This document shows, piece after piece, positions 5,840 to 58,268 of a stretch of DNA of 64,000 bases. How positions within the stretch are numbered: position 1 is the stretch's first letter; each line of letters begins with the position of its first letter. The stretch comes from Minisyncoccota bacterium (GTDB taxonomy: Bacteria; Patescibacteriota; Minisyncoccia; Phycocordibacterales; UBA5272): positions 57,759 to 121,758 of the forward strand of contig DALYEZ010000001.1 in NCBI GenBank assembly GCA_031972295.1, read 5' to 3'. The position numbers were made by a program, and so were the translations under genes. The notes under the pieces were generated by a model that saw nothing but the letters and a program-made list of their open reading frames with translations, made no database searches and was not told the origin of the DNA.

Positions 5840-6373
5840 ATGAACTTCACAAATCCTACAATTCACATAGACGCTCTCGGTCTTAATCCAGGCGATGTAG
5901 TTGTAGACCTTGGAGCAGGAAGTGGTGCATATGCAAAAGTTGCAGCCAGAGCCGTGACAGCACGAGGTACTGTCTACGCAGTTGATCTCAATCGCGATCT
6001 TCTCACCCGACTCAAGAAAGACGCGACAGACGAACAGTTCCTTAATATCGATACTGTTTGGGGTGACATTGAACGAGAAAATGGCGTACAACTTACCTCA
6101 CACATTGCAGATGCAATTTTACTTTGCAATACGCTTTTCATGGTGGAAAACAAGCAGGGACTGTTACAAGAAATAAAACGTATTCTAAAACCAAAAGGAA
6201 AAGTACTCATTGTTGAATGGAGTGATTCTCATGGGGGAGTTGGCCCACACAAAGATCATGTTTTCAGTGAAGTAGAAGCAAAAAACCTTTTTAGTGCCGA
6301 CGGATTCACTATCTCTCACGCAAGCGACGACGCATCGTACCATTATCGATTTGTCGCAACAAACAATATATGA
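5840..6373 (+). CDS. class I SAM-dependent methyltransferase
   Basis: VVDLGAGSGAYA glycine-rich motif I. Confidence 0.6.
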   Translation: MNFTNPTIHIDALGLNPGDVVVDLGAGSGAYAKVAARAVTARGTVYAVDLNRDLLTRLKKDATDEQFLNIDTVWGDIERENGVQLTSHIADAILLCNTLFMVENKQGLLQEIKRILKPKGKVLIVEWSDSHGGVGPHKDHVFSEVEAKNLFSADGFTISHASDDASYHYRFVATNNI

Positions 6374-7692
6374 AAATGTCACCATTTCAACTTGTCATCG
6401 TTGGTTTATTTGGGCTCGCTGCGCTTGGAGCTGTCGGAGTCCTTTCAGGTGTCATAAAACTCCCTCAATCAGCAAATGAAAATCTTTCAGGGAGTGTCAC
6501 TATGTGGGGTACTATTGATGCAAAGGCTTTTCAATTTACTGAAAACTTTCTTCAGTCACAAAACAAAAATATCTCTTTCAAGTACGTACAAAAACCACAG
6601 GCAAATTTTGAGTCAGTCTTAAGCGAAGCAATCGCCTCTGGAAGAGGTCCTGACCTTATTCTTATCTCACAAGAACAAATTTTAAGAAATAAATCAAAGT
6701 TAGTACTACAAAAACTCGATGCAGATACAACACTTGCGTACAAAAACGCATACATAAACGGCGCTGAACTTTTCCTTACCGAAGAAGGGCTTACGGCACT
6801 TCCATTTGGTGTCAATCCACTTGTGATGTATTACAATGATCGACTTTTAACTTCTGCTGGCTTCTCAAAGCCACCACAGTATTGGGATGAAATGGAAACA
6901 TATGTAGACGCTCTCACTGTAAAAAACGACGACAAAGACATTCGTCAGTCTGCCATAGCTCTTGGTACTTTTGAAAACCTAGAATATCCGCTGGACATAG
7001 TGAGTGCACTCATTCTTCAGACAGGAAATAAAATTGTCGAAGGAAAAACAACCTATGACAATACAGACAACGCTCGCACAACCTATCAATCATACCTCGC
7101 AACAAATACATCAAACCAGGTTGTTGAATTTTTTAATGCCTTCTCAAATCCCCAAAAGAAACTCTATTCATGGAACAAGTCACTTCCTGACGATCTAAAT
7201 GCGTTCACATCAGAACTCATCACTTTCTGGTTTGGATATCCCACAGACGAAGCTCGTATCGAAGCAAAAAACCAAAATCTCAATTATAAAGTAACTTCAA
7301 TTCCTCAAATTAGAAATTCAAAGAATCGTCTTACCTATGGGAAAATATATGGTATTGGGATTCTAAAGTCGTCGCCAAACAAATCTGCAGCAAGCTTTAT
7401 TGCCCAAGAACTTACACGTAATGAAGCTCAAAAAGTAACACTCGAAGATGGGGGATTGCAATACCCATACCGTACAACTCCAACAGGTACCACCAAAAAC
7501 GACGTATCTGCATTGTTTGCTCGCCAAGCGATACAAGTTGTTGGCTATTACATGCCATCATTTGACTTCACCTACGCACTTTTTAATAGTACGTTGAGTC
7601 AAATAGCCTCCGGTGCACTTGATACAGATAGAGGGGTTCAAAGAATAGAAGCTGAATTGAACAATTACATTAGTAAAAATCAATTAAACTAA
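6370..7692 (+). CDS. membrane-anchored extracellular solute-binding-protein-like protein
   Basis: N-terminal TM then SBP-like pattern (WDE, NPLVMYYN). Confidence 0.4.
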   Translation: MKMSPFQLVIVGLFGLAALGAVGVLSGVIKLPQSANENLSGSVTMWGTIDAKAFQFTENFLQSQNKNISFKYVQKPQANFESVLSEAIASGRGPDLILISQEQILRNKSKLVLQKLDADTTLAYKNAYINGAELFLTEEGLTALPFGVNPLVMYYNDRLLTSAGFSKPPQYWDEMETYVDALTVKNDDKDIRQSAIALGTFENLEYPLDIVSALILQTGNKIVEGKTTYDNTDNARTTYQSYLATNTSNQVVEFFNAFSNPQKKLYSWNKSLPDDLNAFTSELITFWFGYPTDEARIEAKNQNLNYKVTSIPQIRNSKNRLTYGKIYGIGILKSSPNKSAASFIAQELTRNEAQKVTLEDGGLQYPYRTTPTGTTKNDVSALFARQAIQVVGYYMPSFDFTYALFNSTLSQIASGALDTDRGVQRIEAELNNYISKNQLN

Positions 7693-7694
7693 CC

Positions 7695-7801
7695 ATGAAA
7701 AAAACTCTCGCAACATTCTTTCTTCTTTCTGCTTTCACGGTAATTGCGTTTGCTCAACAACCAAGCACAGGCAATGAAGGTGCGCCAAGTACGGGGAATG
7801 A
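7695..7801 (+). repeat. 107-bp direct repeat copy A (5' end of paralog 1)
   Basis: identical to 8185-8291 apart from one c/t mismatch. Confidence 0.9.
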
Positions 7802-8183
7802 GAAGCCTGCATATTGTGCCACTATAGATAGGTCAGAGTTGGAAACATCTATTGTTCCTTGTGGAAGACAAGTTCATATTTGTTATAGTCCAGAAAATGC
7901 ACAATGTGAGTTTAAACATCTATTCATTTTAGTTAACAATATGGCACGAAACTTCATCGTAGTCGTATTTGCACCATTACTCACAATTGTCCTTATGTAC
8001 ATTGGATTTCTATTCATAAAAGATCAAGCAGGGGCTAAGGTAAAAGCAAAAGCTCTCCTTTTGCGAGTTCTTATTGGTACATTCTTTGTACTTGGAGCGT
8101 GGCTTGTAGTAAACTTTATCTTAAGTGCCTTAAATGTAGATACAGAGGTCAAAAAACCACTTCAAGGTAACAACACAAACTAA
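7695..8183 (+). CDS. VirB2/TrbC-like two-helix secreted membrane protein, paralog 1 (with Cys-rich insert)
   Basis: Sec signal AFA/QQ; two hydrophobic helices separated by a charged loop; 4-Cys insert. Confidence 0.45.
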   Translation: MKKTLATFFLLSAFTVIAFAQQPSTGNEGAPSTGNEKPAYCATIDRSELETSIVPCGRQVHICYSPENAQCEFKHLFILVNNMARNFIVVVFAPLLTIVLMYIGFLFIKDQAGAKVKAKALLLRVLIGTFFVLGAWLVVNFILSALNVDTEVKKPLQGNNTN

Positions 8184-8184
8184 C

Positions 8185-8291
8185 ATGAAAAAAACTCTTG
8201 CAACATTCTTTCTTCTTTCTGCTTTCACGGTAATTGCGTTTGCTCAACAACCAAGCACAGGCAATGAAGGTGCGCCAAGTACGGGGAATGA
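8185..8291 (+). repeat. 107-bp direct repeat copy B (5' end of paralog 2)
   Basis: see copy A. Confidence 0.9.
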
Positions 8292-8568
8292 CAGCATCTC
8301 TATTGTAAACCCAATAGGCCCAGACAATATCCAGGATCTTCTCGCCACTATTTTAAGTGCTATTGTACAAATCGCAATTCCATTTCTTGTACTCGCGATA
8401 ATGTATGTTGGATTTCTTTTTGTGGTTGCTCGAGGTAATCCAGAAAAGCTCGCTCAAGCAAGACAAGCTCTTTTCTACACACTTTTAGGCGCACTCATTA
8501 TTCTTGGAGCTCAAACTCTCTCAGTTATTTTAAGCGGTACCATTAACCAACTTACGAATCAAAATTAG
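8185..8568 (+). CDS. VirB2/TrbC-like pilin-type protein, paralog 2
   Basis: signal peptide identical to paralog 1; helix1-RGNPEKLAQARQ-helix2. Confidence 0.45.
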   Translation: MKKTLATFFLLSAFTVIAFAQQPSTGNEGAPSTGNDSISIVNPIGPDNIQDLLATILSAIVQIAIPFLVLAIMYVGFLFVVARGNPEKLAQARQALFYTLLGALIILGAQTLSVILSGTINQLTNQN

Positions 8569-8576
8569 AAACATTT

Positions 8577-9038
8577 ATGAAATATCTTTTTTCTCTTTCA
8601 TTATTTGCGCTCCCTCTGGTTGCCCAAGCAGAAATTCGAAACCTTGGAGATGTGCTCGCATGGGTACTCAATATAGTAAATGTTTATTTTATTCCACTTC
8701 TTGTATCTCTCGCTCTTCTTGCATTCTTTTGGCGTAACATTGTGGCGCTGGCAAAAAAAGATGAGCTCGTATCAAAAGCAGAAACAAAATGGTACCTCTT
8801 TTGGGGAATCATTGCTCTTTTTGTAATGGTATCTGTGTGGGGACTTGTGGGTATTTTAGCTGATGCGCTTGGTATCAAAAATGTTGTGCCCCAACTCAAT
8901 ACTGGTGACAATCCTAATGATGTAAACATTCCTGGTTGTGGTGTGCTTGCAGATCCAGAAACCTGTAACCCAGGCGGAGAAGATGGTTCTCCATTTTTTC
9001 CTGTTCCACCAGACTATGGGGGAGGTACGCGCCCATAG
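8577..9038 (+). CDS. VirB2/TrbC-like pilin-type protein, paralog 3
   Basis: signal peptide AQA/EI; two helices plus charged loop; Gly/Pro-rich C-tail. Confidence 0.4.
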   Translation: MKYLFSLSLFALPLVAQAEIRNLGDVLAWVLNIVNVYFIPLLVSLALLAFFWRNIVALAKKDELVSKAETKWYLFWGIIALFVMVSVWGLVGILADALGIKNVVPQLNTGDNPNDVNIPGCGVLADPETCNPGGEDGSPFFPVPPDYGGGTRP

Positions 9039-9106
9039 TTTACTGTGGATAACACTATACTTTTCAAGTTTTTCTTGCGATAATGAAAAGGTACAAAAAT
9101 ATAATT

Positions 9107-9460
9107 ATGAAAAGACTTTTAGCATCAGCTTTTGTGTTCGTTATCCCCGCAATTGCGTTTGGACAACAACGAATCGGATACCTATTTCAGCAGATTCTTA
9201 ACTTTATTGCTGACGTAATTCAGTTTTTAGGCCCAGTTCTTATTTCACTCGCTCTTCTTGCTTTCTTCTACAGTCTTATTCGATACTTGCTCGATAAAGA
9301 CAATACTGCAAGTTCAAAATCATACCTTGGATATTCAATTTTAATTCTCTTTGTAATGGTTTCTATTTGGGGAATTGTTGCTTTCCTTCAGCAAAACCTT
9401 GGTATTGGTGACGGACGAGATCTCTACAATACTCCTGGTGTAAATATCCCGAATCTCTAA
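9107..9460 (+). CDS. VirB2/TrbC-like pilin-type protein, paralog 4
   Basis: MKRLLASAFVFVIPAIAFGQQ signal; same two-helix layout. Confidence 0.4.
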   Translation: MKRLLASAFVFVIPAIAFGQQRIGYLFQQILNFIADVIQFLGPVLISLALLAFFYSLIRYLLDKDNTASSKSYLGYSILILFVMVSIWGIVAFLQQNLGIGDGRDLYNTPGVNIPNL

Positions 9461-9468
9461 ATCTAAAA

Positions 9469-9756
9469 ATGATAGCGTACGGACAAGAAGTTGACGCCTT
9501 TGTTCAAGGGGCAATAGGGAAGTTTGTTGAGATAATCATTAATCCAATTATTATTCTCTTTGCCACCGCATCTCTACTTGTCTTTATTTGGGGAATCATT
9601 GAGTTTTTGGCTCAAGGAAATAACCCAGAAAAAGCATCTACTGGTAAAAGGCATATGTTTTGGGGAATCATCGGACTCTTCATCTTCATTGCTTCTATCG
9701 GCATCCTACGCATCATCTCAAACACAGTAGCTGGTCCACAAATTCTTGGAAATTAA
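9469..9756 (+). CDS. VirB2/TrbC-like pilin-type protein, paralog 5
   Basis: helix1-QGNNPEKASTGKRH-helix2. Confidence 0.4.
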   Translation: MIAYGQEVDAFVQGAIGKFVEIIINPIIILFATASLLVFIWGIIEFLAQGNNPEKASTGKRHMFWGIIGLFIFIASIGILRIISNTVAGPQILGN

Positions 9757-9784: not shown

Positions 9785-9816
9785 AAAAGGCGATCGCATC
9801 CATGCGTCGCCTTTTT
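9785..9816. terminator. bidirectional intrinsic terminator between convergent genes
   Basis: aaaaggcgatcgcat...atgcgtcgccttttt. Confidence 0.45.
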
Positions 9817-9823
9817 GATTTCC

Positions 9824-10246
9824 TTAGTCTTGGCAAACCCGCCAAGACTCACCTTTTGGGTAGATGCAGTACTCCACCACATCTCCGGGATTTCCACGAA
9901 ACTGAAGCTTGTTCGCCCCAGCTCCGCCAAATAAACCCGAAATCCCATCTTGATAGGTCTTTTCCACCCAACCTTGTTTTTCAGCCCTGAAAAACATACC
10001 TTCAGGGCCCCAGACTGCGATTGTCTGACTTACACTGTGTTCCACCATCTCGCTCCAATTTTCTTGGAGCCTCAGGGTTACCTTTCGGTACACCTTAGGT
10101 ACAGAGATTGTGTGTTGTACTGGGGTTTGCTGGGAAGAAGCTTGTTGCTGTTTTTGTTTCGATGGATCACCCTTTGGTCCCGGAACAAATACCCAAACCA
10201 CCAGTAAAACAAGAATGATCAGAACTCCGATGCCAACCTTGTTCAC
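9824..10246 (-). CDS. hypothetical membrane-anchored protein
   Basis: N-terminal TM; Gln-rich linker; overlaps the SPFH gene by 4 nt. Confidence 0.4.
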   Translation of the reverse strand: MNKVGIGVLIILVLLVVWVFVPGPKGDPSKQKQQQASSQQTPVQHTISVPKVYRKVTLRLQENWSEMVEHSVSQTIAVWGPEGMFFRAEKQGWVEKTYQDGISGLFGGAGANKLQFRGNPGDVVEYCIYPKGESWRVCQD

Positions 10247-11127
10247 GGAACACCTCCTTGGTTACCACTTTCGTTTTGACCAATGACAACAACTGGCCGA
10301 GCGCCACCACCTCCTGTGCCTCCCGTAATTTGGTTTGTGGTAACAGTAGTACGCTTACCAGTAACCCGATCTGCTTCGGCCTGTGCCTCAGCAAAACTTG
10401 CGCCCGCAGCAAGAGCGTCATTGATGATTTTCGTACGGAACGCAAGTTCCTGCTCTTGAGCGATTTTTTCCGCAGTTTCAATCACGTACTGATTACGAGC
10501 CGCCTCGAGAGCTGCTGGAATATCAGCTGATTCAAAGTACAGATCACAAATTTCTACACCTTTTTGCTTTGCTTCATAAGCCAAAGCTTGCGCACGATCA
10601 CTTGGCAGGACTGTGGTTAAGTCGACTTTCGCATCCTCAACCGTGAGAGAATTAAGTGTCGAAAGATAATATCGCACAGTCGCAATCCCAAGACTCTCAA
10701 GGGCGTCCCTTAAATTTTCCACAAGAGCCGCTGCATACGGATCAATCACTTTGTAAGCAATCAACCCTTTTGCCTTGTTCAACGTAACACCATCCTTAAG
10801 CTTCGGTTTTTCGATGGTGATGGGTATCGTTACCAGTTTCGAGGGTATTCTGATTGTGCCAATGACACCCGGCAGCTCAAAATACAAGCCCGTCTTCACC
10901 TGGAAGCCTGTGACCGCCTGAAAAACTGTTAGTATTCCTACTTCTCCAACTGGAACATTGTTGTTCAGGAAGAAGATAAATCCACCTCCAAAAACAATGG
11001 CCATTGAGAGCCAAATCCTAATGTCCTCCACTGGAGAGAAGATTTTTCCCCAACCTGCAAGCACCAGTAGACCAATCAAGGCCCCCAGCGTAAAACCAAA
11101 GAAAATTGAAATAATATTCCCGTTCAT
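10243..11127 (-). CDS. SPFH/band-7 domain protein
   Basis: N-terminal TM plus SPFH core and Ala/Glu-rich coiled region; Gly-rich tail. Confidence 0.65.
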   Translation of the reverse strand: MNGNIISIFFGFTLGALIGLLVLAGWGKIFSPVEDIRIWLSMAIVFGGGFIFFLNNNVPVGEVGILTVFQAVTGFQVKTGLYFELPGVIGTIRIPSKLVTIPITIEKPKLKDGVTLNKAKGLIAYKVIDPYAAALVENLRDALESLGIATVRYYLSTLNSLTVEDAKVDLTTVLPSDRAQALAYEAKQKGVEICDLYFESADIPAALEAARNQYVIETAEKIAQEQELAFRTKIINDALAAGASFAEAQAEADRVTGKRTTVTTNQITGGTGGGGARPVVVIGQNESGNQGGVP

Positions 11128-12180: not shown

Positions 12181-12618
12181 CTATTTGCAAGTACAGACAC
12201 CATCCTTACAGTTGCAGTTTGCACACATTTTGTCTTTCAAAAGAGCGTACTTTCCAGCACCAGTAAACACCATCGCAAGTGACGCAAGAAGGAGAACAAG
12301 TTGGAATTCATATCCACCATTACCTCCAAATCCATTTGCTAAGTGAACCTTAAAGATTGCTGTAAGCATTACTATTGTAAGAAGTGCGCCTGCTTCGCGT
12401 ACACAAATACCAAGAATTAAGAGAAGTCCACCGAGAAGCTCTACCCAAGCCGTAATGTATGCCCAGAAAGGCGCAAGTCCAATAGATCCAAAGAATCCTA
12501 TTGTTGCCTCCATGTTGTCCACCTTACCCCAACCGTGGTACACAAACACAAGTCCGAGCGCTATTCGAATAAGAAGAAGACCGAAATTTTTATTATGACA
12601 AGATGCTAAAGAAAACAT
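12181..12618 (-). CDS. DoxX-family membrane protein with Cys-rich C-tail
   Basis: LLIRIALGLVFVYHGWGK DoxX N-terminus; tail CANCNCKDGVCTCK. Confidence 0.6.
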   Translation of the reverse strand: MFSLASCHNKNFGLLLIRIALGLVFVYHGWGKVDNMEATIGFFGSIGLAPFWAYITAWVELLGGLLLILGICVREAGALLTIVMLTAIFKVHLANGFGGNGGYEFQLVLLLASLAMVFTGAGKYALLKDKMCANCNCKDGVCTCK

Positions 12619-14397: not shown

Positions 14398-14973
14398 ATG
14401 CCTGAAGCGTTATTTACTGACATTGTGAGTACTTTGGTACTCTTGTCCATTCCACTTATTGTTATCCTTTTTATCTTCCGTTTTAGCTACGCACTGCCAT
14501 ATACCGAATGGGTACGAGCGCAGTTGAATGAAAACGCCCTTATCTTTGCTTTTTTGATTAGCCTTTTTGCAACACTTGGCGCACTTACATATTCAAATCT
14601 CTATCTTTTTGCAGTGTGTGATTTTTGTTGGTATCAAAGAATTGCAATATATCCAATGATCTTACTTTTAGGTATTGCAGCGTTCCGAAAAGAACGGCTC
14701 ATCAAACCGTATGTTATCGCACTCGCAAGTGCAGGACTCCTTGTCTCTATCTATCACTGGACAATTCACATGGTAGCAACCTATGGCTCTCAAAGTGCGG
14801 CTGACGGACTTGTGCCATGCAGCGCGGATGCCTTCCTTCCTTCATGTAGTCAGACAGAAATTCTCGAGTATGGATTCATCACGATTCCATTTATGGCAAT
14901 TACAACACTTTCTCTTGTTATCGTACTCATGCTTTTTATCAAAAACAAAAGAAGTTCGTTTGATACAATGTAA
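14398..14973 (+). CDS. disulfide bond formation protein B (BdbC-like)
   Basis: CDFCWYQR motif; 4 TM helices; second Cys pair in loop. Confidence 0.6.
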   Translation: MPEALFTDIVSTLVLLSIPLIVILFIFRFSYALPYTEWVRAQLNENALIFAFLISLFATLGALTYSNLYLFAVCDFCWYQRIAIYPMILLLGIAAFRKERLIKPYVIALASAGLLVSIYHWTIHMVATYGSQSAADGLVPCSADAFLPSCSQTEILEYGFITIPFMAITTLSLVIVLMLFIKNKRSSFDTM

Positions 14974-34987: not shown

Positions 34988-36658
34988 TTACTTTTTTGTG
35001 ATCAGCGAAGCACGAACTAATCGAATATCTTCAAAAGAAGTTTCAACTTTTTTAGATTTACACAGTTGTATAATTTCTGTCAGTTTTGCCTCAGGATTTT
35101 TTGTAATAATACTAGAAATCATTTTGTGATGGGGGATAGGAGTCGCTAAATATTTTATCTTGAGGTCCGCCCCTTCTTTTAGTAAATCCTCAATATGAGA
35201 AATAATTGTTCCCGGAGTTAAATCTCTTTTTTCTGCAATTTCTTGCAAAGACAATTTTTCTTCAAGATATTTTTTTGTAATCATTCGCGTAGGGACTTTT
35301 TCTTCGTGTTCACTCTCAGATTCTTCTTGCTCTTCAATACTGCCATAGGCACGAGTAATAAAAGCCTCGTGGAGCTTTATAAGCTCAACTGCAGAATATT
35401 TTTCTAATGCGTTTTGAGCCCGAATAGATTTCGCGTGGAGCTCTTTATCAAGCATTAAAATTTCTGGATGCATGAGGAGTGCGTCATCATGAAAACCTAG
35501 AAGCTCAACACCTTCTATGGTCCGCACACGAGAAAGGGCAACATAACCCATTCCGAACGTAAATGTCTTTGAGAGGTCAATCTGAGCAGCGTCAAGCGTC
35601 ATTCCTTGTGACTTGTGCACAGTAATAGCCCAGGCATATCGAAGAGGAATTTGTTTTATTTCCGCCTTCACCTTTCCATCTTCTTCTATCCTCCAAGCAT
35701 CTTCTGTGACCGTTAATTCTGCGCCCGAGACTGTTTTTACGACAGGGAAGCCAAGATTGGTAAACTTTATAACAACCCCGAGTGTACCGTTATTATATCG
35801 CTTTCCTTGATCATTTTTTACAAACATAACCCTAGTTCCAACTTTAAGTTTCAGAGTCTCTGGCGCAAGACAACTTTGTATCAAACTATCAACAAGATTT
35901 GCTTTACCTTTTGTCTTCATCTCAAAAACTTTTTCTTCATCAGATATTTGTGCGTACTCAGTATTATTAATACGGTCAACATCTTCATTATGTGTGTATA
36001 GTTTGGTATGTGTAATATGAGCAACACTTTTTTTTGTCGAGCCCACAAGCGTACGTTTTAAATTATCTTCCAGGGTGCCAGAACGCATATCTCGCAAAAC
36101 CAAAGAAAGATTGTCTCCGGTATGACGATACTCAGTAGTCAGATAACAAACAACAGGATTTAGTTTTTTCCAAACTTTCGCATTAAATGCAAAATCATTC
36201 ACGCTCACTTCTTTATTTCTACTAACAGGAGGGAGTTGGAAGAAGTCTCCACAAAACACCACTTGCATTCCTCCAAATGGGCGACTGTCTTTACGAATAG
36301 TTCGTGCAACCAAATCAACCATATCAAGCCGATGAGCGTGGAGCATCGATATTTCATCAATAACAAGCACCTGAGTGCCTTTGTAGCGCGTATATAAATT
36401 TTTCTTTTGCTCTAACTCATCTAAATCATATTCAGTAAGTCGATCTTTGATTCCAATTCCGGACCAAGAGTGAAGTGTTACTCCTCCTATGTGCGTTGCT
36501 GCAATACCAGTAGAAGCAGTTATGGCCGCTGAAATAACATGAGACTTAAGCCATTTAATATATTCATTAAGCACGTATGTTTTACCTGCACCAGCTCCGC
36601 CAGTAAGAAATACAGAGTGTCCTAGTTTTAGAATAGCGAGAGCATCTTCCTGAGTCAT
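34988..36658 (-). CDS. PIF1/RecD-family ATP-dependent DNA helicase with C-terminal HTH-like domain
   Basis: Walker A GGAGAGKT, Walker B VLVIDEISML, ITVHKSQG motif. Confidence 0.8.
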   Translation of the reverse strand: MTQEDALAILKLGHSVFLTGGAGAGKTYVLNEYIKWLKSHVISAAITASTGIAATHIGGVTLHSWSGIGIKDRLTEYDLDELEQKKNLYTRYKGTQVLVIDEISMLHAHRLDMVDLVARTIRKDSRPFGGMQVVFCGDFFQLPPVSRNKEVSVNDFAFNAKVWKKLNPVVCYLTTEYRHTGDNLSLVLRDMRSGTLEDNLKRTLVGSTKKSVAHITHTKLYTHNEDVDRINNTEYAQISDEEKVFEMKTKGKANLVDSLIQSCLAPETLKLKVGTRVMFVKNDQGKRYNNGTLGVVIKFTNLGFPVVKTVSGAELTVTEDAWRIEEDGKVKAEIKQIPLRYAWAITVHKSQGMTLDAAQIDLSKTFTFGMGYVALSRVRTIEGVELLGFHDDALLMHPEILMLDKELHAKSIRAQNALEKYSAVELIKLHEAFITRAYGSIEEQEESESEHEEKVPTRMITKKYLEEKLSLQEIAEKRDLTPGTIISHIEDLLKEGADLKIKYLATPIPHHKMISSIITKNPEAKLTEIIQLCKSKKVETSFEDIRLVRASLITKK

Positions 36659-57567: not shown

Positions 57568-57599
57568 ATTCTTCTATGATACACTATAGAGAATATTTT

Positions 57600-58268
57600 A
57601 TGCGAAACCCACTCGACTGGATAGCAGATCAGGTTCTTGAATTCTTTTTTATTCTACGCAACCTCCGAAAAACAAAAGAAGAACGTGTGGTGGCACGACG
57701 TGCAGCATGGTACGCAAAAGCGCAAGAAATACTCCGTTTTGTAACCACTGTTGGTTTTTTCTTCATCATCATTAAAACGTTCCTTATACAACCCTTCCTT
57801 GTACAGCAAACTTCAATGGTACCCACATTCGAACCCTACGACTACATTATTGTCGATCGATTTTCGTATACTTTTTTAGAAGAACCTAAACGTGGAGACG
57901 TAGTTGTGTTTAAATCTAGTCCAGAAAATGGTAATCGATACCTCATCAAGCGAATTATTGGACTTCCAGGAGAACAAATTACTATTGATGGCACAACTAC
58001 AATTATCACAAATAGTACTCACCCTGAAGGGTTTCAACTCAATGAAACATACATCGAAAACAAAGATGAGCGAACAAAAAAAGTCGCAACTCTTGGTGTA
58101 GATGAATATTTTATGATGGGAGACAACCGCCCACTCAGTCTTGATTCACGACAAATCGGTCCTATTAAGCGCACGCAAATTATTGGAAGAACACTCGTTC
58201 GTCTATATCCATTCACACAAATATCACTCTTTCCTGGCTCAGTGGACGTTTTAACTAAAACCCCGTAA
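57600..58268 (+). CDS. lepB: signal peptidase I
   Basis: S26 boxes: SMVPTF, RGDVVVF, GDNRPLSLDSR. Confidence 0.8.
   Translation: MRNPLDWIADQVLEFFFILRNLRKTKEERVVARRAAWYAKAQEILRFVTTVGFFFIIIKTFLIQPFLVQQTSMVPTFEPYDYIIVDRFSYTFLEEPKRGDVVVFKSSPENGNRYLIKRIIGLPGEQITIDGTTTIITNSTHPEGFQLNETYIENKDERTKKVATLGVDEYFMMGDNRPLSLDSRQIGPIKRTQIIGRTLVRLYPFTQISLFPGSVDVLTKTP

Follow-up and report, generated by a model that had tools for sequence, protein, structure and literature searches.

Tandem arrays of VirB2-like genes have already been published for Patescibacteria. McLean et al. (2020; PMC7427843) described an array of 4-6 small proteins with Sec signals in TM7x. In S. epibionticum, a predicted pilin series inside the cluster of its type IV secretion system (T4SS) is essential (Wang et al., 2023, PMC10633639; also covered in the review PMC12857230), and a relaxase or coupling protein was not recognizable in this T4SS (PMC10633639). 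Quiñonero-Coronel et al. (2025; PMC12102498) reported VirB4 in 2,417 of 3,035 Patescibacteria assemblies. VirB2-like proteins were found in 1,948 of the VirB4-positive assemblies, in just 1,135 of them near virB4. The survey covered 441 VirB2-like arrays, and patescibacterial arrays were described as 2-11 tandem genes with a mean paralog identity of ∼25% and a maximum of 54%. We analyzed five tandem genes, P1 to P5 (positions 7695-9756), in a stretch of 64,000 nucleotides (nt) from a Minisyncoccota bacterium (GenBank assembly GCA_031972295.1, contig DALYEZ010000001.1, positions 57,759 to 121,758 of the forward strand). This whole stretch is called the window below, and positions are counted from its first letter unless a related locus is named. 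The array in the window fits the published definition: it has five tandem genes, the paralogs are 23-52% identical to each other, and the nearest genomes are Paceibacteria. It is a member of this published kind. We consider the five genes to represent the patescibacterial VirB2-like pilin array in its Paceibacteria form, encoding subunits assembled by a T4SS, with a probability of roughly 60%.

An earlier reading of the letters alone (hereafter the sequence-only reading) had proposed an operon of VirB2/TrbC-type pilins, not prepilin-type pilins, in five consecutive genes with short gaps. The open reading frames (ORFs) are present as described, co-oriented and tightly packed in one block with spacing of 1-44 nt (Table 1). 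The VirB2/TrbC-type assignment was borne out by P2 and P5, which scored 36.4 and 30.0 bits against Pfam PF18895 (T4SS_pilin; gathering score 26.6 bits). P1 (19.6 bits) and P3 (15.2 bits) stayed below the gathering score, and P4 gave no direct Pfam match to PF18895 or to PF04956 (TrbC/VirB2). P1, P3 and P5 were likewise without a PF04956 match; P2 is the most VirB2/TrbC-like paralog. Several of the 37 P2 homologs have precomputed PF04956 matches; one homolog is labelled 'pilin [Minisyncoccia bacterium]', and close homologs carry the label 'pilin' or 'TrbC/VirB2 family protein' in their sources. NCBIfam NF045849, a pilin-like conjugal transfer protein of a Mycoplasma integrative and conjugative element (ICE), was matched weakly by P5 (27.3 bits) and P2 (23.0 bits; cutoff 40).

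The low-scoring paralogs were tied to the others by their mutual similarity. Comparison by blastp among the paralogs of four genomes gave three subtypes: A (P1 and P2), B (P3 and P4) and C (P5), with P4 matching P3 at 66 bits. A local hidden Markov model (HMM) was built from 20 paralogs and run against the ORFs of the window. It matched exactly P1 to P5 (E values of 3e-33 for P1, 9e-37 for P3 and 1.5e-35 for P4) and nothing further below E = 0.5. An alignment of type-B/C proteins, compared by hhalign with the P2-family alignment, gave a probability of 97.5% and an E value of 8e-12 over the entire hairpin, and PF18895 was matched by 15 of the 18 type-B/C proteins. Membership of P1, P3 and P4 in the PF18895 family is thus supported, at the sequence level, by homology to the members that pass. 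We concluded that P1 to P5 are homologous, though diverged, members of a single two-helix hairpin family, PF18895, which is related to TrbC/VirB2.

An alternative is that the five are small membrane proteins of unrelated origin (holins and bacteriocin immunity proteins had been named with the sequence-only reading) or hydrophobic ORFs that stand in a row by chance. The small size, the two transmembrane (TM) helices and the weak individual Pfam scores of P1, P3 and P4 would agree with it. The PHROGs comparison, however, returned no holin and no other annotated match (two matches at E ∼0.08 were to families of unknown function), and the neighbours of the array are housekeeping genes among which phage or bacteriocin genes were not seen. 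Together with the strong mutual homology and the conservation in more than 60 genomes, this makes the alternative exceedingly improbable; it is effectively refuted.

In all five proteins, Kyte-Doolittle analysis showed two segments of strong hydrophobicity with a short K- or R-containing loop between them (loops in Table 1). This agrees with the proposed layout of helix, charged loop and helix, as does the AlphaFold2 model of P2 (27 homologs), a confident helix-loop-helix with helices at residues 49-81 and 86-125 and a predicted local distance difference test score (pLDDT) of 94-97. Type IV prepilin identity was ruled out, since the N-termini are Sec signals (or none, in P5) without the G/(F or M)-x-x-x-E motif, and the proteins have two helices, not one.

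A Sec signal had been proposed for every paralog. The N-termini of P1 to P4 are indeed classical Sec signals, but P5 begins with MIAYGQEVDAF and has no signal peptide, and no in-frame start codon was found upstream of it. In the alignment, the P5 N-terminus MIAYGQE matches the cleavage region AIAFGQQ of P4, so P5 is effectively born mature. The final gene of the array is leaderless in all four other loci inspected (related loci L007, L008, L009 and L034). A P5-type gene looks like a paralog with its leader trimmed away.

The 4-Cys insert of P1 and the Gly/Pro-rich tail of P3, both noticed earlier, are real. The P1 cysteines are at residues 41, 56, 63 and 71, and all four are kept in the L007 and L008 orthologs. 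The P3 tail holds Cys121 and Cys130, and a Cys pair is kept in the C-terminal tail of the L007 and L008 orthologs. A DoxX-family membrane protein with the Cys-rich tail CANCNCKDGVCTCK and a DsbB-like protein are encoded a few kilobases downstream (Table 1); either could be relevant to disulfides of the Cys-bearing pilin subunits.

The 5' ends of P1 and P2 form a 108-nt direct repeat with 99% identity, 92 nt of it exact, which encodes the signal peptide and a QQPSTGNEGAPSTGN linker; the remainder of the two genes has diverged. Because one repeated sequence underlies them, the signal peptides and linkers of P1 and P2 are not independent evidence. We read the repeat as a putative recent gene conversion or duplication. 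In L007, the 5' ends of the first two array genes (g1 and g2) are likewise near-identical, but the leader differs from that in the window. In L088 (7354/7809), 40 nt are exact between the first two pilin genes. Exact repeats of at least 40 nt were found in 5 of 78 related arrays. Such shared 5' ends look like sporadic gene conversion among adjoining paralogs.

The P2 homologs come from metagenome-assembled genomes (MAGs) of Minisyncoccia/Paceibacteria. The nearest GTDB genome is a Candidatus Paceibacteria MAG whose solute-binding protein (SBP), encoded upstream of the array, is 93% identical to that of the window. The order gyrA, S-adenosylmethionine (SAM) methyltransferase, SBP and five pilin-like genes was found in all six gene tables that were read (L007, L008, L009, L011, L012 and L013). 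The P2-type proteins are 71-75% identical to P2 in L007 and L008 and 42% in L009, and the blocks of L011-L013 were found through SBPs merely 31-36% identical. We then scanned one genome per GTDB species with the SBP alignment. This gave 532 relatives, from which 80 loci were kept, Nomura-, Kaiser-, Adler-, Taylor-, Zambryski- and Wolfebacteria among others. Sequence of at least 2.5 kb downstream of the SBP was present in 66 loci, and in 64 of these at least four pilin-like ORFs lie directly 3' of the SBP gene (five in 39, six in 15, four in nine and seven in one). Upstream of the SBP, gyrA was found in 62 and the methyltransferase in 65 of 67 loci. The SBP-pilin linkage persists to ∼30% SBP identity, and it is likewise kept at loci without a gyrA or methyltransferase hit upstream. 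The block of gyrA, methyltransferase, SBP and about five pilin genes is conserved across Paceibacteria.

Within this block the paralogs behave as positional orthologs. Identities between the window and L007 or L008 are 59-78% for the pilin-like proteins and 73-74% for the SBP, against 23-52% among the paralogs of the window, and the P1 orthologs of L007 and L008 score ∼200 bits. In the more distant L009, the g2- and g5-type relationships alone are still recognizable. Ancient duplication with every copy kept under purifying selection argues for non-redundant roles. Antigenic variation, which was suggested in PMC12102498, is contradicted by the positional orthology and by conservation about equal to that of the SBP.

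The sequence-only reading had placed the array behind a membrane-anchored solute-binding-like protein, and the description holds. The SBP has a TM segment at residues 3-32, and its AlphaFold2 model (pLDDT 89.4) has a MalE-like fold; Foldseek placed maltose-, cyclomaltodextrin- and oligosaccharide-binding proteins at the top with E ∼1e-22. Profile matches to SBP families are weak, and Paceibacterota homologs are labelled 'extracellular solute-binding protein'. The SBP start overlaps the stop of the upstream methyltransferase gene. An ATP-binding cassette (ABC) permease (BPD_transp_1) or ATPase gene was not found beside the SBP in the window or in the six annotated loci (L007-L009 and L011-L013).

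The SBP and the five hairpins might instead form a self-contained, T4SS-independent module, in which ten TM helices act as a channel or sensor for SBP-dependent uptake or signalling of a non-ABC kind. The confident SBP fold resembling oligosaccharide-binding proteins, the pilin ORFs 3' of the SBP in nearly every locus down to low SBP identity, their persistence where gyrA or the methyltransferase was not found, and the lack of ABC partners in the gene tables all point in this direction. We nevertheless find such a module rather improbable. The hairpins are homologous to pilins and not to transporter families, an energy-coupling component was not found, and the Fn3-type fusions (see below) and Cys-pair tails suggest display and not transport. 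Caution is needed with the SBP linkage: gyrA and the methyltransferase show nearly the same degree of synteny, so adjacency is weak evidence.

An array gene in first or second place is enlarged to 350-670 amino acids (aa) in at least 10 related loci. These giant pilins consist of a signal peptide, beta-sandwich domains resembling Fn3, CHB_HEX_C_1 or Pur_ac_phosph_N (purple-acid-phosphatase-N-like), and a C-terminal PF18895 hairpin, which is above the gathering threshold in 9 of 10 (examples in Table 1). The position of the Fn3-type domains N-terminal to the hairpin suggests that the N-terminus is the extracellular, decoration-bearing end. The N- and C-termini of VirB2/TraA are both outside. 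An outside N-terminus agrees with this predicted topology, as well as with the 4-Cys mini-domain in P1 and the Cys-pair tail in P3.

Five published genomes with the SBP-linked block (L038, L053, L062, L068 and L088) are listed as Paceibacteria and VirB4-positive, five of five. For GCA_000996025 (L088), Table S3 of PMC12102498 gives T4SS core genes 156-162, consisting of one PF18895 pilin and of VirB4, TrsD and VirB3 at genes 160-162. The single distant 'VirB2' entry, KKR45844.1, is gene 409; an exact-sequence look-up assigned it to the same 90%-identity cluster as the SBP-linked array's g2-type gene. The flanking KKR45845.1 (g1) and KKR45843.1 (g3) are 'hypothetical' and not in Table S3. Three genes of the L088 array were mapped, the last two lying outside the fetched locus. 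That one of the three mapped genes is listed suggests that Paceibacteria arrays are under-recognized. The T4SS core with its own single pilin is ∼250 genes from the SBP-linked array.

Table S3 of the same survey also lists CONJScan 'FATA_PrgF' matches interleaved with VirB2 and away from virB4 in published Paceibacteria genomes, for instance GCA_000995965 (genes 545, 548 and 550) and GCA_000996115 (genes 203, 205 and 206). The PrgF profile accordingly appears to capture type-B/C subunits of Paceibacteria arrays, and the PrgF proteins of Gram-positive T4SSs may be part of one hairpin superfamily with them. When the mature domain of P2 was compared by tblastn with 72,556 plasmids, one match was obtained (E 9e-3), too weak to use. 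It lies on the Vallitalea pronyensis plasmid pVpro (L094, 11944-13632), in the N-terminal membrane region of a hypothetical protein of 562 aa that is directly preceded by a PrgI-family protein and a 599-aa ATP-binding protein and followed by an M23 peptidase, which is a Gram-positive-type T4SS context.

The hairpins could also be membrane anchors or scaffolds for a surface layer and adhesins, forming a hetero-oligomer in the membrane in which type A tethers the extracellular modules, with no polymerization by a T4SS. The giant pilins carry their long N-terminal fusions on this same hairpin, the array is unlinked to virB4, and the T4SS cluster of relatives has a separate pilin of its own, all of which such anchoring would explain. 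Yet the hairpin family is defined by, and elsewhere located in, T4SS clusters, the pilin series in the S. epibionticum cluster is essential, and five conserved, distinct paralogs, mostly without an appended domain, would be hard to explain. We regard anchoring as unlikely.

Several results weigh against assigning the array to a T4SS structure. The sequence-only reading had noted that VirB4, VirB6 and VirD4 are absent, and among the 46 larger ORFs scanned in the window none was VirB4, VirD4/TrsD, VirB6 or VirB3. Of the two profile families it had named for comparison, T4SS_pilin was passed by P2 and P5, but TrbC/VirB2 was not: P2 scored 25.0 bits (E 2e-5, profile positions 11-94 of 98) against a gathering score of 27.9 bits. 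Foldseek of the P2 model against the PDB gave a best E value of 2.9, to generic helical hairpins (type III secretion system needle, ATP synthase c and coiled coils); such a search is uninformative because the two-helix fold is too simple. The P2-family profile against PDB sequences gave nothing meaningful, the top match being a signal-peptide match. Since the T4SS cluster of relatives has its own single pilin, the distant array could serve another purpose, and the SBP linkage may reflect the general collinearity of small genomes alone. A pilus has been visualized for no patescibacterial T4SS (PMC12857230), and monoderm T4SSs normally do not make one (PMC12102498). Subunits of a patescibacterial T4SS surface structure are still the most likely products of the array, and their assembly into a pilus is what we infer.

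If the products are T4SS subunits, a plausible course of events can be outlined. P1 to P4 would be exported by Sec and cleaved by signal peptidase I, whose gene is in the same window, and P5 would insert into the membrane without a leader. All five would take the VirB2 topology, with both termini outside and the basic loop in the cytoplasm, and form a pool of membrane subunits. A chromosomal VirB4/TrsD/VirB3 machine, presumably encoded elsewhere as in the relatives, would draw them from the membrane and build them into a heteromeric pilus or a short envelope-spanning conduit contacting the host cell. That the five paralogs are conserved and not interchangeable speaks for a heteromeric structure with division of labor and against antigenic variation. 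P2-type is a plausible bulk subunit, and P1- and P3-types would be decorated subunits. The P1-type would bear variable N-terminal extracellular modules (the 4-Cys mini-domain here, Fn3-like arrays of 350-670 aa in some relatives) and the P3-type the C-terminal Cys-pair tail, both probably exposed on the outer face. The presumably co-transcribed MalE-like protein may serve to bind glycans of the host surface or to pass on captured solutes, which is the weakest step. It is also conceivable, though we hold it to be a long shot, that the MalE-like protein and the array make up one conserved Paceibacteria apparatus independent of the virB4 cluster. This would be a glycan-sensing or solute-capturing surface filament or channel, with pilin-fold subunits co-opted as its membrane and extracellular part and N-terminal Fn3/Cys modules as exchangeable host-recognition heads.

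The genes of the block are closely spaced: 2 nt between SBP and P1, 1 nt between P1 and P2, 8 nt between P2 and P3, 44 nt between P3 and P4 (ORF as listed) and 8 nt between P4 and P5. The orthologs of P4 and the gene calls of sibling contigs begin at MKRLLA. The real start of P4 is therefore probably the ATG at 9107 (MKRLLAS..., 117 aa), and the P3-P4 gap then becomes 68 nt. A GC-rich hairpin 3' of P5 has a minimum free energy of -21.6 kcal/mol (z -5.9), and 0 of 200 shuffles folded equally well; it likely closes the operon. A scan for consensus promoters and terminators stayed at background level and missed this hairpin, which direct folding found. Convergent to the array are two minus-strand genes, one for a 294-aa SPFH/Band_7 protein and one for a protein of 140 aa with an N-terminal TM helix; the terminator hairpin is common to them and the array. 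A comparable minus-strand pair lies 3' of the array in L007, L008 and L012 (Band_7 recorded in L012 only) and not in L009, L011 and L013.

The window is a piece of ordinary chromosome, with genes for alanine racemase, GyrA, SMC, RNase R, DnaB, RecR, TrmD, topoisomerase I and RelA/SpoT, as well as pentose-phosphate and glycolytic enzymes, GatB, ParB, S1, Pth, signal peptidase I, HisRS, FtsA and FtsZ. A PIF1-like helicase with a C-terminal helix-turn-helix domain is encoded in the stretch of lowest GC (0.368 at 34-36 kb vs. ∼0.41 elsewhere), which adjoins the stretch of highest GC (0.45-0.46 at 30-34 kb). The low-GC stretch may be foreign DNA.

Table 1. Positions of the array genes, associated features and giant pilin examples (window positions unless a related locus is named; a slash in a signal marks the predicted cleavage site).
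Feature	Position	Strand	Description
Class I SAM methyltransferase	5840-6373	+	4-nt overlap with SBP start
SBP	6370-7692	+	440 aa; MalE-like solute-binding-fold protein, membrane-anchored; first gene of the SBP and pilin block
P1	7695-8183	+	162 aa; type-A pilin-like subunit; predicted Sec signal AFA/QQ, low-complexity linker, 4-Cys mini-domain, two-helix hairpin; loop KDQAGAKVKAK
P2	8185-8568	+	127 aa; type A; signal (AFA/QQ) and linker as in P1, then hairpin; loop RGNPEK
P3	8577-9038	+	153 aa; type B; Sec signal AQA/E, hairpin, C-terminal Gly/Pro-rich tail; loop KKDELVSK
P4	9083-9460	+	125 aa as ORF; type B; Sec signal AFG/QQ; loop DKDNTASSK
P5	9469-9756	+	95 aa; type C; hairpin without leader; loop QGNNPEKASTGKRH
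108-nt direct repeat, copy 1	7694-7801	+	5' end of P1
108-nt direct repeat, copy 2	8184-8291	+	5' end of P2
GC-rich hairpin	9785-9815		likely bidirectional intrinsic terminator; A and U runs on flanks; direct folding
SPFH/Band_7 protein and 140-aa protein	9824-11127	-	pair convergent to array
DoxX-family membrane protein	12181-12618	-	Cys-rich tail
DsbB-like protein	14398-14973	+	
PIF1-like helicase	34988-36658	-	C-terminal helix-turn-helix domain
Signal peptidase I	57576-58268		in the same window
Giant pilin, L034	7300-8889		
Giant pilin, L080	7300-9084		
Giant pilin, L050	7345-8961		
Giant pilin, L066	7822-9840		
Giant pilin, L052	7722-9563		

A large part of bacterial diversity belongs to the Patescibacteria, whose members seem to live on other cells. 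The T4SS and its pilin series are essential in the only species among them that is genetically tractable. In Paceibacteria, the largest class, about five distinct subunits of pilin fold are retained as a fixed set, in a conserved housekeeping block behind the SBP and away from the ATPase cluster. This offers a defined subunit set for structural modelling and proteomics, the SBP as a candidate partner, and fusion variants that mark the N-terminus as the exposed end; surveys that rely on profile thresholds would under-count Paceibacteria arrays. The terms 'solute', 'SBP' and 'gyrA' were not found in the text of the 2025 survey (PMC12102498), which does not mention the SBP/gyrA-linked block, and a literature search on the candidate phyla radiation (CPR), TrbC and solute binding did not turn up such a block either. 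A leaderless fifth subunit and Fn3-fused variants were not found in the available portions of the published array descriptions. The gain is incremental because the basic phenomenon was already published; what we add is a conserved architecture in Paceibacteria, a fifth subunit without a leader, variants with fused domains, and evidence that the published survey under-detected such arrays.

Compared with known systems, the array most resembles the published patescibacterial ones. It shares with them the phylum, the PF18895/VirB2-like family, about 5-6 tandem genes, Sec signals, a range of paralog identities (23-52% here vs. a mean of 25% and a maximum of 54%), and a chromosomal location with apparently vertical inheritance and no relaxase context. 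In Saccharimonadia the array is inside the virB4/virB6 cluster, whereas in the window it is part of the gyrA-methyltransferase-SBP block and a T4SS gene was not found within 64 kb. With TrbC/VirB2 of diderm T4SSs (A. tumefaciens VirB2, RP4 TrbC and F TraA), the proteins share a signal peptide, two hydrophobic helices, a short basic loop and a mature core of ∼85 residues, and the PF04956 match of P2 is near-threshold and full-length. They differ from these in the monoderm host, in having five paralogs instead of one major pilin plus VirB5, in the absence of adjoining VirB genes, in the one leaderless subunit and in the sub-threshold PF04956 score. Mbov_0395 and MMCAP2_0565 of Mycoplasma ICEs and the PrgF-type proteins of the FATA class of mating pair formation (MPF-FATA) systems are likewise small two-TM hairpins of monoderm T4SSs, but those are single genes on mobile elements and not chromosomal five-gene arrays. 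The upstream 440-aa protein shares its fold with MalE-type (cluster B/D, SBP_bac_1/8) ABC substrate-binding proteins. Unlike MalE-type ABC systems, it is without adjacent permease and ATPase genes, has an N-terminal TM anchor, and is followed by pilin genes.

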